In this document: one piece after another, positions 1 to 52,858 of the stretch
How the letters are laid out: each line of letters begins with the position of its first letter
Position numbering within the stretch: position 1 is the first letter of the stretch
Assembly (NCBI GenBank): GCA_964016885.1
Contig: OZ024747.1
Coordinates: 18,476,001 to 18,540,000 of the forward strand
Source: Eledone cirrhosa
Taxonomy: Eukaryota
Length of the DNA stretch: 64,000 bases
Reading direction: 5' to 3'
The notes under the pieces: generated by a model
The model's input: the letters and a program-made list of their open reading frames with translations, nothing else
What the model was told of the DNA's origin: nothing
The model's database searches: none
Program-made: the position numbers and the translations under genes

Positions 1-142
1 CCAACAGAACTACCAACTCCTTTAATTATACTAGCAGAAAAACCGCCCTCGGGCTAGCATATGTAGTGTGCAAGTTGGTAGTGTGCATATTGGTATTATA
101 CGCAAATATATATATGTAAATTGAAAAGTAAATTGACAATAT

Positions 143-8806: not shown

Positions 8807-9695
8807 ATTGTCGAACCTCATTAACATAATATTGTCCAACCTCATTAACATAAAATTATCTTACCTCACTAACATAAAATTATTTTACCTCATTAACATA
8901 ATATTGACCAACCTCGTTAACATATTATTGTCCAACCTCATTAACATAATATTTTCCTTCCTCATTAACATAATATTGTCCAATCTCATTAACATAAAAT
9001 TATGTTACCTCATTAACATAAAATTATCTTACCTCATTAACATAATATTGACCAACCTCATTAACATAAAATTATCTTTTCTCATTAACATAAAATTATT
9101 TTACCTCATTAACATAAGATTATCTTATCTCATTAACATAAAGCTATCTTACCTCATTAACATAAACGTATTTTACCTCAATAACATAATATTGTCCAAC
9201 CTCATTAACATAAAATTATCTTACCTCATTAACATAAAATTATCTTACCTCATTAACATAAAATTATTTTACCTCAATAACATAATATTGTCCAACCTCA
9301 TAAACATAAAATTATCTTACCTCATTAACATAAGATTATTTTACCTCACTAACTTAAAATTATCTTACCTCATTAACATAAAATTATCTTACCTCATTAA
9401 CATAAAATTATCTTACCTCATTAATATAAAATTATTTTACCTCATTAACATAATATTGTCCAACGTCATTAACATTATATTTTCCTACCTCATTAACATA
9501 AAACTATCTTACCTCATTAACATAAAATTATTTTACCTCATTAACATAAAATTATCTTACCTCATTAACATAAAATTATTTTACCTCATTAACATAATAT
9601 TGTCCAACCTCATTAACATAAGATTGTCCAACCACATTAACCTAAAATAATCTTACCTCATTAACATAATATTGTCAACCTCATTAACATAACAT
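8807..9695. repeat. 24-bp minisatellite (about 36 units)
   Basis: Unit ctcattaacataaaattatcttac, with variant ctcattaacataatattgtccaac. Confidence 0.95.
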
Positions 9696-10402
9696 TATTG
9701 GGATAGGAAAAATATCTGCATTTCAATATTACTCAATGTAAAATGTAATACATGAAAAGTCGGAAAACATTAATAATATACATTTGTAATATATCAAATC
9801 AAAATTACATTATTAAATCTTATTCTTATTTTGTTTCTTGTAAATAATTTTTTTCAAAATATCAATTCAAATCTTTTGTGAATAGGCATCATATGTTGTC
9901 ATTTATCTATGGTTTAAATTTCATATACATAGAAGGGAAAACATTTCAGCGGGGATTTGTGCCTCCGGGGAACGCTAATAGGGGGTTTAACCCCCATTAG
10001 GGTGTCTTAATATTATTGAAATTTGTTGAAATTTTGTGAATAGGCATCATATGTTGGCATTTACCTATGGTTTAAATTTCATATAAATCGAAATGAAAAA
10101 ACTTTCAGCGGGGGTTTGTGCCTCAGGGAACCCTTTGATTACAATGAAATATACTTATCCAAGTACCCTGTGCCAATGTAGTTTCAGAATATATATGGTT
10201 ATGGGGATCTATCTCCAAAACCATAGGAGTAGTTCGTGAACAAACAAACAGACAGGAACACAACTTTATATATATATATATATATATAGTAATAATAATA
10301 AATTTGAAGACTAAAATCCAAAGAGGGCTCGATAAGGATAAATATATATCAAATATATAAGAAAATCTGTTATTTTAATAAATATATATATATATATATA
10401 TA

Positions 10403-16763: not shown

Positions 16764-18030
16764 TACTAGCCGAATTACCCGCGCCTTGCTGCGTTTCACA
16801 ACCTTTTTTTGTAAGAAAATGATGATTGATTTTAAATATCATTTATGGAGAAAAACTCTGCATTTCAATATTACTCAATGTAAAATGTAATGCATAGAAA
16901 ATTGGAAAACATTATTTTTGGTGGATTGGCAGTATCGGTAGAGGGTCGGATGCCATACTTTGACGCATAGAATTACGGTTCTTGCCATTCTGAGTTCAAA
17001 TCCCGCCGAGGTTAACTTTGCCTTTCATCCTCACGGGGTCGATGAAATAAAGTACCAGTAATGCACTGGCCTTGTGCCAAAAGTAGAAACAATTATTTTT
17101 GTAATATATCAAATCAAAATTACATTATTAAATCTTATTCTTATTTTGTTTCTTGTAAATAACTTTTTTCAAAATATAAATTTTAAACTTTTGTGAATAG
17201 GCATCATAAGTTGTCATTTACCTATGGTTTATGGTTTAAATTTTATATAAATCGAAGGGAATACATTTTCAGCGGGGGTTTGTGCCTCCGGGGAACCCTA
17301 ATGGGGGTTAAACCTCCTATTAGGGTGTCTTAATATTATTGAAATTTGCTGAAATTTTGTGAATAAGCATCATACTTTGTCATTTACCGATGGTTTAAAT
17401 TTCATGTAAAACGAAGGGAAAACATTTTCAGCGGGGGTTTCTGCCTGCAGCAAACCCTAATAGGGGTTGAACCCCCATTAGGGTGTCTTAATATTATTGA
17501 AATTTGCTGAAATTTTGTGAATAAGCATCATACTTTGTCATTTACCGATGGTTTAAATTTCATGTAAAACGAAGGGAAAACATTTTCAGCGGGGGTTTCT
17601 GCCTGCAGCAAACCCTAATAGGGGTTGAACCCCCATTAGGGTGTCTTAATATTATTGAAATTTGCTGAAATTTTGTGAATAAGCATCATACTTTGTCATT
17701 TACCGATGGTTTAAATTTCATGTAAAACGAAGGGAAAACATTTTCAGCGGGGGTTTCTGCCTGCAGCAAACCCTAATAGGGGTTGAACCCCCATTAGGGT
17801 GTCTTAATATTATTGAAATTTGCTGAAATTTTGTCAATAGGCAGGTGTTTTTGTCAATAGCAGGTGTTTTCAGCGGGCATTTTGTACCCCCGGGGAACCC
17901 TTTGATTAAAATGAAATATACTTATCCAAGTATCCTGGGCAATGTAGTTTCAGAATACATATGGTTATGGGTGTGTATCTCCAAAACCATAGGTGTAGTT
18001 CGTGAACAAACAGACAGGAATACAACTTTA
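16764..18030 (+). mobile_element. Helentron/Helitron-like non-autonomous element with internal 158-bp tandem repeat and nested SINE
   Basis: TACTAGCCGAATTACCCGCGC start. The internal repeat recurs at 17341, 17499, 17657 and 17815, each unit with hairpin accctaataggggttgaacccccattagggt. A SINE is inserted at 16920-17096. Confidence 0.65.
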
Positions 18031-27943: not shown

Positions 27944-27978
<35 letters not shown>

Positions 27979-28040
27979 ATATATATATATATATATATAT
28001 AATCCAAAAAAAAACAAAAAAAAAAATATATATATATATA

Positions 28041-29910
28041 TTGGAATAAATGCTCTGAAATAGCGATATATATGTGAATATAGACATAGAATATTCGAAA
28101 ATATTCTGTATGTTTATAATAAACATTTTGAAGACCTAATCGCTATAGAATAGAATACGTCACGTATTACAATTAGATTCTCGATAAAAGCAAGGGAAGT
28201 AATCTACGCGTTTCATTCTTGTTAGAAATCATCAGGACTACATATCCAGTGCTTTTATCGAGAATGACACAGCTAGAGACTTATAGAATACTTAGCTGTG
28301 TACAGGAACTGGTTTGAAAGAGCGGTTGCCGGTCCGGCAGAAATTAGAAATTGGAATAAATGCTCTGAAATAGCGATATATATGTGAATATAGACATAGA
28401 ATATTCGAAAATATTCTGTATGTTTATAATAAACATTTTGAAGACCTAATCGCTATAGAATAGAATACGTCACGTATTACAATTAGATTCTCGATAAAAG
28501 CAAGGGAAGTAATCTACGCGTTTCATTCTTGTTAGAAATCATCAGGACTACATATCCAGTGCTTTTATCGAGAATGACACAGCTAGAGACTTATAGAATA
28601 CTTAGCTGTGTACAGGAACTGGTTTGAAAGAGCGGTTGCCGGTCCGGCAGAAATTAGAAATTGGAATAAATGCTCTGAAATAGCGATATATATGTGAATA
28701 TAGACATAGAATATTCGAAAATATTCTGTATGTTTATAATAAACATTTTGAAGACCTAATCGCTATAGAATAGAATACGTCACGTATTACAATTAGATTC
28801 TCGATAAAAGCAAGGGAAGTAATCTACGCGTTTCATTCTTGTTAGAAATCATCAGGACTACATATCCAGTGCTTTTATCGAGAATGACACAGCTAGAGAC
28901 TTATAGAATACTTAGCTGTGTACAGGAACTGGTTTGAAAGAGCGGTTGCCGGTCCGGCAGAAATTAGAAATTGGAATAAATGCTCTGAAATAGCGATATA
29001 TATGTGAATATAGACATAGAATATTCGAAAATATTCTGTATGTTTATAATAAACATTTTGAAGACCTAATCGCTATAGAATAGAATAAGTCTCTAGCTGT
29101 GTCATTCTCGATAAAAGCACTGGATATGTAGTCCTGATGATTTCTAACAAGAATGAAACGCGTAGATTACTTCCCTTGCTTTTATCGAGAATCTAATTGT
29201 AATACGTGACGTATTCTATTCTATAGCGATTAGGTCTTCAAAATGTTTATTATAAACATACAGAATATTTTCGAATATTCTATGTCTATATTCACATATA
29301 TATCGCTATTTCAGAGCATTTATTCCAATTTCTAATTTCTGCCGGACCGGCAACCGCTCTTTCAAACCAGTTCCTGTACACAGCTAAGTATTCTATAAGT
29401 CTCTAGCTGTGTCATTCTCGATAAAAGCACTGGATATGTAGTCCTGATGATTTCTAACAAGAATGAAACGCGTAGATTACTTCCCTTGCTTTTATCGAGA
29501 ATCTAATTGTAATACGTGACGTATTCTATTCTATAGCGATTAGGTCTTCAAAATGTTTATTATAAACATACAGAATATTTTCGAATATTCTATGTCTATA
29601 TTCACATATATATCGCTATTTCAGAGCATTTATTCCAATTTCTAATTTCTGCCGGACCGGCAACCGCTCTTTCAAACCAGTTCCTGTACACAGCTAAGTA
29701 TTCTATAAGTCTCTAGCTGTGTCATTCTCGATAAAAGCACTGGATATGTAGTCCTGATGATTTCTAACAAGAATGAAACGCGTAGATTACTTCCCTTGCT
29801 TTTATCGAGAATCTAATTGTAATACGTGACGTATTCTATTCTATAGCGATTAGGTCTTCAAAATGTTTATTATAAACATACAGAATATTTTCGAATATTC
29901 TATGTCTATA
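28041..29910. mobile_element. Retrozyme-like 310-bp tandem array with a central inversion
   Basis: Units start at 28041, 28351, 28661 and 28971 (partial). Orientation flips at 29085-29087 and reverse units continue with period 310 to about 29910. Both ends lie in (TA)n. One HHR per unit. Confidence 0.93.
29104..29192 (+). ncRNA. Type I hammerhead ribozyme of the 310-bp monomer, with extended stem I
   Basis: gtagtc-CTGATGA-[tttct aaca agaat]-GAAA-cgcg-TA-gattac (core 29128-29170, GUA site). A distal 16-bp helix, 29104-29119 with 29177-29192, lies beyond an internal loop. Copies at 29438 and 29748 (+) and at 28199, 28509 and 28819 (-). Confidence 0.92.
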
Positions 29911-29912
29911 TT

Positions 29913-29967
<55 letters not shown>

Positions 29968-30281
29968 TATAATATATATAATATATATTATATATATTAT
30001 ATATATTATATATATATATATATAATATATATATAATATATATAATATATATTATATATATAATATATATAATTGTTTCTACTTTTGGCACGAGGCCAGC
30101 AATTACCCAGTGCATTACTGGTACTTTATTTTATCGACCCCGTAAGGATGAAAGGTAAAGTCAACCTCGGCGGGATTATATATATAATATATATAATAAA
30201 TATAATATATATAATATATATAATAAATATATATACATAATATATATAATATATATGATATATATATATAATATATATATG

Positions 30282-30847: not shown

Positions 30848-31390
30848 AGAAATAAATAGGTAAGAAAATAATTGTTTCTACTTTAGGCACAAGGCCAGCA
30901 ATTACCCAGTGCATTACTGGTACTTTATTTTATCGACCCCGTAAGGATGAAAGGCAAAGTCAACCTCGGCGGGATTTAGGTAAGAAAATAATATAGGCGA
31001 AAGATGAGTTGGTATGCAGACAAAACTTTATGTATTATTTTTAATAATAATAATAATAGTAATAAACGAAAGATATATACTTTATACCATCTCTATTTAT
31101 TTTATTGTATACTAGCACAATGGCCCGGCGTTACTCGGGATTTGCTCTAGGGTTCTTATATATTTGTTATATATTTATCCTTATCGAGCCTCGTGAAATA
31201 ATACGTTTGTTTATATTTTGTTATTGTGTATGCAAAAATATCTGTACACGAATATATAATTATATATATATTAAAATAACAGATTCAAGTTTAAGCAAAG
31301 AATCGCTGCTTTCACCCTTAACGGGATCTTCTGAAACTGAAAAAATAAATCTGTGAACGCAGAAGTAAATATTTCGAAAAACGTTACACA

Positions 31391-50704: not shown

Positions 50705-51136
50705 ATAGTGCGATGGACTATGCAGTATATATATGGTTATAAATATGGTTATAGTATAGTGTGGTGGACTATACAGTATATATATGGATATAGTATAGTG
50801 TGGTGGACTATACAGTATATATATATGGGTATAGTATAGTGTGGTGAACTATACAGTATATATATGGGTATAGTATAGTGTGGTGGACTATACAGTATAT
50901 ATATGGGTATAGTATAGTGTGGTGGACTATACAGTATATATATATGGGTATAGTATAGTGTGGTGGACTATACAGTATATATATGGGTATAGTATAGTGT
51001 GGTGGACTATACAGTATATATATGGGTATAGTATAGTGTGTGTATGTAATGGTATTGTAGGGTGTATTATAGTGCGATGGACTATACAGTATATATATGG
51101 GTATAGTATAGTGTGGTGGACTATACAGTATATATA
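50705..51136. repeat. About 38-40-bp minisatellite
   Basis: Unit gtatagtatagtgtggtggactatacagtatatatatgg. Confidence 0.9.
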
Positions 51137-52858
51137 TGGAGGGGGGTGGACTAATCCCCTGGTACCCCCCTGAAACAAGGCCCTTGTATATATGGTATAG
51201 TGTGTGTAATGGTGTAGTGGGGATGTTTATAGGGTGTATCATAGTGTGGTGGACTGTAGAAGATATATGTGTGTATGGTGAGGGGTTCGAGTGTATATTC
51301 GTGTGTGTGATGTAGTATAGAGCTTTCTTTCTGCTGTAGTATGTGTGTAACGCGGGATTTGTAGGCTTTATTGTTGTTGTTTAACTCCGGTCAGCACTGA
51401 TCGAGCTGACCTATGGTCAAAGAGACATTCCTGTCTTTTCCCTCTGTACATGAAACCAAGAGCTACGTTAACCAACACATATTATTTTGGTGGATTGGCA
51501 GTATCGGTAGAGGGTCGGGCGCTATGATTTGCAACATAGAGTTACGGCTCTTTACGGTCTTTTGAAATTAGGCGTGCCATTCAGAAAGCCAAATGGGTTG
51601 CAGGTTAACTATGTCTGGTGTAGTGTGGTATGGTGTTTTTAGTGTATATATGTTCACTCATAGGCGGCAAATTGGCAGAATCGTTAAGACGTCGGATAGA
51701 ATGCTTTACGGTGTTCGTCCCACCTAATGGCGCGCTCTGAGTTCAAATCCCACGCTAGTCTACTTTGCCTTTAATCCTTTCGAGGTCGATAAAAAAAAGT
51801 ACCAATCCAGTACTGGGGTCGATTCTTCCCCTATAGAAAAAATCGACTGTGTTCAGATCTGGAGAGGGTTGGGCTCCGTCAGGTTTAAAAGTACCCAAGA
51901 CACGCCATATGACAGTGCCTCTATGACTCCACAAGGAGTTATGGGATCTTTATCCTTTATGTTCACCCTATGTCATGGATTCTTAACTCCTAGTGAAGTC
52001 GTAGGGGTACAATTTACAGACATGTGTGTATGTACTTGTAAGTATGTATATGTGTACATAAGTCTGCATATGTGGTCCAATGAATATAGAATCGTGATGT
52101 GTGTAGGGCGTCTGCCGGCCTTAAGTATTGTGTAATATATGCTGTGATGTATGTACGATATTGTTGATATTTATCCCTTGATCAGTTCTGATCAAACAGA
52201 TCTATAGTCAAAGTCGTTCCAACCACGACCTTACCGTCTTTCAAATTCGCCGTTCCTTTAAGACAATTAGATAAGATAGGGAGAAAATTTACCTACTATT
52301 ACTAGCACGTTGAGGGACCACATAGGTTCTGTCACAGAGGCTTCTTAGTTGCTCTATAAATGTATGGATAGATGTATACTAGTGGTATGTGTGTGTATAT
52401 ACGGCATCTATAAATGTGTAAAGTGTAAACGTATGTGCTTTGATCTATATGTGGTATGCAGTGTGATTGTACGTGAATGTATGTGATTTGGCACTATATT
52501 CATACATTATTAACATGTTTGTTTTATGACTTTTAAACACTTAACATTCTATATTGAATTGAGGTAGGTGTTTGACTAGAGTTCACTGTCTTATTGCTGA
52601 CAGACTGACAGACTGACTGTCTGACTGTTTGACTGGCTAACCTCTACCCCAGCCACTCTCCTGTGGTGAAGCAGTTCCTTTCTGAATTATATGGTATCGG
52701 CTTCGATCTCCAATATATCGTGGCATCTTAGGTAAACCTTTTATCATAGGGTTCAAGTTGACTCAAGTTTTGTGAGCCGAATTGGATAGATAAAAGCCTG
52801 TCAGGTGGACGGTGCCTGAATTCAAAGGTGCTGACTGGTCTCTCTCGATCTCTCTTTT

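Follow-up and report, generated by a model that had tools for sequence, protein, structure and literature searches.

What is the 310-bp hammerhead repeat found at this locus of the Eledone cirrhosa genome, and by what route was it pasted, in two opposite arms, into a TA microsatellite? The question bears on how retrozymes enter genomes and on how Penelope-like elements (PLEs) make inverted, tailed insertions. The locus lies in a window of 64,000 nucleotides (contig OZ024747.1, positions 18,476,001 to 18,540,000) and is one of roughly 2,000 near-identical insertions of a young, protein-free non-LTR retrozyme. This class of element is already known, and the locus adds a member with unusually clear mechanistic footprints: among some 2,000 young, near-identical events the ends and haplotypes can be read much like an experiment. 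They point to a single start site on each target strand, a template common to both arms, a bottleneck of one unit and apparent selection on the ribozyme. From these DNA footprints we favour, with a probability of about 0.6, a non-LTR retrozyme whose two arms were placed in a TA microsatellite by a PLE reverse transcriptase (RT)-endonuclease that primed both cut strands on one RNA, mostly a 310-nt circle.

Anatomy of the locus

Tandem Repeats Finder places head-to-tail arrays with a period of 310 bp and 99-100% matches at 28040-29091 and 29085-29923, in opposite orientations, and a third at the end of the window (Table 1). The preliminary description had reported one array at 28041..29910; the array and its tandem 310-bp units are real, but its limits are corrected to 28040-29923 and it consists of two arms in inverted orientation that overlap by 3 nt where they meet. 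Units are numbered here from the base after the predicted cut (nt 1), with 29165-29474 as the reference monomer. Every unit of both arms is identical to this monomer with zero mismatches, as had been judged by eye, and the core positions confirm six hammerheads spaced 310 bp apart within each orientation.

The second insertion of the family (locus L031) extends beyond the window and has arms of 9.8 and 10.5 units, with one private substitution present in 20/20 units. It adjoins a 2.9-kb (AT)n tract (60240-63149). Besides the array, the window holds tandem repeats at 8815-9698, 17189-17843 and 50738-51140, with periods of 24, 158 and 39 bp, and two copies (30075-30180 and 30870-30980) of an abundant SINE-like repeat that is also found inside the 3' region of a Hydra-type PLE at locus L235.

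Table 1. Coordinates of the features in the window
Feature	Position	Strand	Remark
Left flank: (TC)n, (TA)n, A-rich, (TA)n target	27948..28039	.	
Left arm	28040..29087	-	3.38 units; RNA sense on minus strand
Left arm outer 3' end	long site, nt 165 after cut	-	
PLE-type tail, 26-35 nt, at left end only	28040..28074	-	cf. Craig 2021, Frangieh 2024
Hammerhead domain	28177..28265	-	CUGAUGA core starts at 28235; H17 at 28205
Second complete monomer, left arm	28205..28514	-	
Hammerhead domain	28487..28575	-	CUGAUGA core starts at 28545; H17 at 28515
Complete monomer, left arm	28515..28824	-	
Hammerhead domain	28797..28885	-	CUGAUGA core starts at 28855; H17 at 28825
Head-to-head inversion junction	29085..29087	.	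3-nt overlap
Right arm	29085..29923	+	2.71 units
Type I hammerhead domain with distal helix	29104..29192	+	core 29134-29164, CUGAUGA starting at 29134; H17 at 29164, predicted cut after it
Reference monomer from cut to cut (RNA of 310 nt predicted)	29165..29474	+	
Conserved region, also present in sister families B and C (nt ~59-165)	29223..29329	+	contains both end sites
Hammerhead domain	29414..29502	+	CUGAUGA core starts at 29444; H17 at 29474, predicted cut after it
Second complete monomer, right arm	29475..29784	+	
Hammerhead domain	29724..29812	+	CUGAUGA core starts at 29754; H17 at 29784, predicted cut after it
Right arm outer 3' end	short site, nt 131-139	+	made indistinct by AT microhomology
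Right flank (TA)n target	29916..30071	.	
Second, independent insertion of the same family (start)	63149..64000	-	locus L031

Family size and sampling

Genome counts were made with exact sequence patterns in a genome of 3.0 Gb. An exact 37-nt core has 4,541 matches (control 0), which supplies the genome-wide copy count proposed as a check in the preliminary description, and patterns for the two kinds of arm end described below have 1,119 (long end) and 1,291 (short end). The overlap of the long-end and short-end lists in the first 217 Mb of C1 gives a rough estimate of ~2,100 insertions, and the presence of the exact core in 243/778 sampled units gives an equally rough ~14,500 units, or 4.5-5.6 Mb. 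Some 800 sampled units have only a few bases different from the window monomer, which, with the 4,541 exact cores, bears out the earlier view of a young element; the tandem 310-bp unit, the hammerhead in each unit, the lack of an ORF and the dispersed high copy number likewise support its identification as a retrozyme.

The sample was drawn from two sources. The core list gave 11 regions, and the end lists, for which 122 regions had been planned, gave 80, namely the first 60 of 79 long-end and the first 20 of 43 short-only regions. After L037 (an overlap) and L108 (a near-duplicate beside a gap) were dropped, 91 insertions including that of the window were available; L078 is cut and was excluded from end counts. 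The 80 loci were chosen through end patterns, which biases the sample toward the end rule and toward TA targets.

The monomer's 25 words are 76-100% present in 20 public runs from 16 studies under 17 coded organism labels, although one of the 20 runs may be the assembly's own source. An assembly artefact appears unlikely, because thousands of copies have fixed end phases and these runs contain the monomer words. Among the public runs listed with these words, none is an RNA run. Related species, mixed samples or horizontal spread could account for the occurrence of the monomer under 17 organism codes.

The hammerhead motif and the predicted RNA

Each unit contains one complete type I hammerhead motif. 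The hammerhead elements listed in the preliminary description are all found: a stem I of 6 bp, including one G-U, a distal helix that extends it by 16 perfectly paired bp, a stem III of the form A-CGCG-U and a GUA cleavage site. Stem II consists of 4 bp over a U.U pair. The 93-nt hammerhead domain folds at -31.9 kcal/mol (z -6.96, with 0/200 shuffles as good) and the circular monomer at -67.8 kcal/mol (z -4.6, better than 100/100 shuffles), and the 61-nt core alone folds no better than its shuffles (z -0.21). A search of the window against Rfam at gathering thresholds gave 0 matches. The longest stop-to-stop frame in the unit is 59 aa, in agreement with the earlier statement that there is no long ORF; the unit has no coding capacity and no ORF for RT plus GIY-YIG.

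Similar features are described for metazoan non-LTR retrozymes from coral, mussel and axolotl (Cervera and de la Pena 2020, PMC7229834), which share the low-GC tandem unit of 150-450 bp, a single type I hammerhead and the lack of an ORF. In the axolotl elements the likeness extends to detail, as HHR_Amex1 has a 1-bp stem III with a palindromic tetraloop and HHR_Amex2 has a U.U at the base of stem II (PMC7229834). Circles and cleavage were demonstrated for the retrozymes of that study and are predicted for the Eledone family. PLEs have been proposed as the drivers of non-LTR retrozymes (PMC7229834), and the main text of the same paper has no mention of inverted arrays or microsatellite targets in a term search. 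The same class and the same proposed driver are treated by Li, Clavereau and Pollet (2026, 10.64898/2026.07.22.740005), on the basis of co-occurrence and pLTR homology in vertebrates and with local amplification by unequal crossover favoured; insertion ends, tails and within-array haplotypes, which are analysed here, do not form part of their analysis as far as its accessible text goes.

On the reading we favour, read-through transcription of an array would first give multimers, in which adjacent hammerheads are predicted to pair through the palindromic ACGCGU. The resulting cuts would free monomers of 310 nt, to be closed by a ligase of the host. The computed pairing energy of two stem III segments is -9.5 kcal/mol. 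For other hammerheads with a short palindromic stem III, a dimer is reported to be required and monomer circles to be silenced (PMC4209133, PMC7229834), and a lone circle of the present family is predicted to cut itself poorly. The weak stem III and the U.U in stem II would moreover predict slow cleavage. It also weighs against the favoured reading that 8/9 Xenopus retrozyme dimers failed to cleave (10.64898/2026.07.22.740005).

Insertion ends, arms and target

Two head-to-head arms with the RNA 3' ends outward are found in 79/91 insertions; the remaining 12/91 are one-armed, two of them stopping in assembly gaps and one at the limit of the retrieved region. In each of the 78 two-armed insertions that could be scored, one end is long (157-172) and the other short (118-139). 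Long ends lie at nt 165 in 68/85 and short ends at 130 or 131-139 in 72/84, most of the lower values adjoining a variant, so that the modal ends, 165 and 130, are about 35 nt apart. Of 86 long ends, 54 lie opposite a short end and 0 opposite a second long one, and among 12 insertions found independently of their ends the 10/10 that are two-armed follow the rule. Both flanks carry (TA)5 in 69/77, against 5% of window positions, although the sampling partly favours this. One insertion at a non-microsatellite site (L035) has a target duplication of 11-15 bp, a feature that is unreadable in (TA)n targets and is given by this single site.

The inner ends behave differently from the outer ones, being uniform round the unit (p 0.16), with 3/158 near the cut against 5.1 expected. 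The arms meet over 1-5 nt of overlap in 37/79 junctions and bluntly in 10/79, with fillers in most others, and some junctions carry short inverted fillers. The longest arms have 27 units.

A one-sided tail of ~35 nt, mostly inside (TA)n, is a PLE tail signature, and with the head-to-head arms it makes up a PLE-type anatomy that the preliminary description did not include and that likely identifies the mobilising machinery. An inverted arm, a tail of 30-40 bp on one end and a bias toward (TA)n are the published marks of PLEs (Craig 2021, PMC8557442; Arkhipova 2013, PMC3846280), and PLEs with an endonuclease (EN+) share with the present family the head-to-head arm, the one-end tail, the (TA)n target and two RT start sites (PMC8557442, PMC11167929, PMC3846280). 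The retrozyme differs from them in being non-coding, in having multi-unit arms on both sides and in a rule of one long and one short end that is strict in the sample. Multicopy tandems also occur in non-autonomous PLEs of the Chlamydomonas MRC1 type, most Chlamys elements lacking hammerheads. A biochemical parallel is the Anolis PLE, a predicted dimer that cuts both strands and extends each of them, its tail being defined by two neighbouring internal start sites (Frangieh 2024, PMC11167929). A literature search on cephalopod retrozymes, non-autonomous PLEs and Penelope twin priming, mostly outside the subscription literature, gave no account of this insertion anatomy, end rule or haplotype test for a retrozyme.

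Taken on its own, a PLE-type twin-primed insertion is highly probable. The PLE enzyme would nick both strands of the (TA)n, and cDNA would start at two fixed sites ~35 nt apart, one per strand; each cDNA would then be extended around the circle, the number of laps differing from one to the next. The joining of the two cDNA ends at unrelated points, often with 1-5 nt of microhomology or a short filler, is the step visible in the DNA itself.

For head-to-head Penelope junctions a different origin has been proposed (PMC3846280), in which priming occurs once and the cDNA then folds back and primes itself to make the inverted arm. Applied here, fold-back would account for the haplotypes shared by the arms and for the mirrored variants described below, and the inverted fillers at some junctions would suit it. 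Two primers are favoured because the short-end arm extends further upstream in 33/75 insertions, so that either arm may be the longer, and only 4/75 are near-symmetric about the junction (within 40 nt); fold-back would also leave unexplained why the second arm ends precisely at the other fixed site, and we judge it quite improbable.

Two junctions hold foreign sequence. That of L100 (5470-5523) has captured 54 bp of another repeat family inserted in (TA)n, and the one in the middle of L038 contains 272 bp of unknown sequence. Both suggest that copying switched to another RNA as template.

Haplotypes and the template

Variants fixed in one arm are also present in the opposite arm in 109/112 tests, and the 91 insertions carry at least 34 haplotypes. 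Of the array-fixed variants, 17/32 are restricted to one insertion, some of them in more than 20 units across both arms, though such sample-private variants may derive from rare source arrays rather than from new bottlenecks. Common haplotypes are mixed in 2/60 arrays of five or more units. The agreement between arms indicates that both were likely copied from one RNA template, and, together with the differences between insertions, points to a template of one unit, for which the simplest source is a monomer circle likely copied by rolling reverse transcription. As the usual template, such a circle seems to us probable. Should circles be confirmed as templates, they would directly document that a circular RNA of the host is reverse-transcribed by a rolling-circle mode into an animal genome. 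A model in which copying jumps from the end of one linear monomer to the next was rejected, as it would mix haplotypes, which 2/60 arrays do, and the inner ends are not enriched at the cut.

A minority of arrays follow another pattern. Unit-specific variants are mirrored at equal rank in both arms of L031, L069, L089 and L120 (three single changes and one haplotype switch), 60 unit-specific variants in 31 arrays are unmirrored, and L060 has a haplotype switch in one arm only. Because a monomer circle cannot yield mirrored rank-specific variants, these suggest that some templates were multimers read in register by both primers, or that conversion between arms took place later.

It would be possible to extend the multimer to the whole family, with an uncleaved linear RNA read from an existing array as template, the same twin priming by a PLE, DNA-level turnover to homogenise the units and the circle, if any, as a by-product. 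The four mirrored arrays and the predicted slow cleavage lend this some weight, as does the Anolis PLE, which in vitro used uncleaved RNA and for which its own hammerhead was dispensable (PMC11167929). We nevertheless consider it unlikely. At ~0.14 single-unit variants per unit, the ~236 units covered in both arms should contain mirrored variants by the tens, had the sources been as aged as the present arrays, and only the three changes and one switch were seen; private variants are fixed across the inverted arms of young arrays, the ribozyme appears to be under strict selection (see below), and linear copying could presumably only shorten the arms.

Apparent selection on the ribozyme

Within the 43-nt ribozyme the fold is kept by 9/9 array-fixed and by 0/9 single-unit substitutions (p 4e-5), a pairing-aware comparison that leaves out two fixed stem I insertions. 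The tolerated fixed changes lie at position 7, in loop II and in wobble pairs or repair the U.U, and changes of the tolerated kinds make up 26% of all those possible in the 43 nt. When the distal helix is included the fold is kept by 12/12 fixed and 4/20 single-unit substitutions, and a test confined to avoidance of the 12 catalytic positions gave no significant difference (0/32 fixed vs 4/96). Because fixed substitutions preserve the fold and single-unit ones do not, ribozyme function appears to be selected, and the molecules that are copied appear to need the ribozyme fold.

A second, strand-specific bias is an excess of A>G among fixed substitutions (10/28 vs 7/76 single ones, p 0.0025), which recurs on several backgrounds at nt 20 and at nt 276. 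Since 8/10 sites are A-U paired, the excess is explained by tolerated G-U pairs just as well as by A-to-I editing. A bolder reading would join these observations in a genome-encoded, viroid-like 310-nt circle serving as direct template of a PLE dimer, which primes both strands at the two fixed sites of a single molecule and rolls round twice. Every insertion would then be the clonal copy of a single RNA that had passed a filter for ribozyme activity, with A-to-I edits written into DNA; the near-identity under 17 labels would reflect recent spread between species. We put this forward as speculative, with the balance against it.

The same data bear on whether the family might be a DNA-level dispersed satellite, or an artefact of assembly, in which the hammerhead-like fold is incidental. 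The want of an Rfam match and the assembly-level nature of the sequence would fit such an origin, and recombination can amplify tandem repeats (Li 2026, 10.64898/2026.07.22.740005). It is nonetheless highly implausible in the face of the fixed end phases, the target preference and duplication, the strand-specific A>G excess, the structure-preserving inheritance and the monomer's presence in 20 runs of 16 studies.

Sister families and candidate PLE drivers

The window family has two older sisters, B (unit of 318-321 bp) and C (for which a 29-nt motif has 1,209 matches). All three share nt ~55-240, both end sites and the inverted arrangement, and B and C differ from the window family in stem II. 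The conserved region of Table 1 that contains both end sites is likely to be the signal read by the PLE protein. Covariation in it is modest, with 4/27 predicted pairs changed on both sides among 10 related sequences, a count made without a shuffle control. Family C loci, read with ~500 bases upstream at 30 of the 1,209 matches, are short non-coding inverted arrays. Retrozymes of B and C type with the same end sites and decayed hammerheads lie at L098:3770-4580, at L152:278-705 and at L172-L201.

The retrozyme co-occurs in the genome with PLEs, as GIY-YIG and RT matches show. GIY-YIG matches are abundant (150 of 10,595 candidates were scored and 50 loci examined), and RT plus GIY-YIG is found in several frames, one at L152 reaching 938 aa. 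Head-to-head PLE insertions in (TA)n, with the same layout as the retrozyme, occur at L157 and L160 and also at L235. Among the 50 GIY-YIG and 39 Hydra-type loci there was no autonomous PLE terminus homologous to the end-site region, and blastn of the monomer against them returned only sister families and the shared stem-loop II.

That stem-loop occurs in a Hydra-type PLE of the same genome (L235:3505-8370 and L232), in which the frame is followed by a 3' region and then a hammerhead. Its hammerhead core and stem II equal those of the retrozyme at 26/28 aligned positions, including the U.U, and it too is inserted head-to-head in (TA)n with unequal ends; it differs in lacking any other homology to the monomer, in a tail of ~65-70 nt and in ends closer to the ribozyme. 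Its protein (P0001, a frame of 772 aa) has the motifs RWR, DKT, CxCX5C, CxxC and CxH as described for Hydra, a Pfam search of it gave no significant match, and more than 25 near-full-length stop-free copies with 95-97% identity are present among 61 scored. This element is likely the donor of the stem-loop and is not a proven driver. With its mapped start sites, the 310-nt unit offers a substrate on which the PLE mechanism can be tested in vitro.

A 39-nt motif of the Hydra-type PLE has 2,993 copies that are strand-skewed (2,269 vs 724), which hints at a large tandem cluster. At L165:8068-9553 a tandem repeat of 483-511 bp with another type I hammerhead lies downstream of an RT plus GIY-YIG frame.
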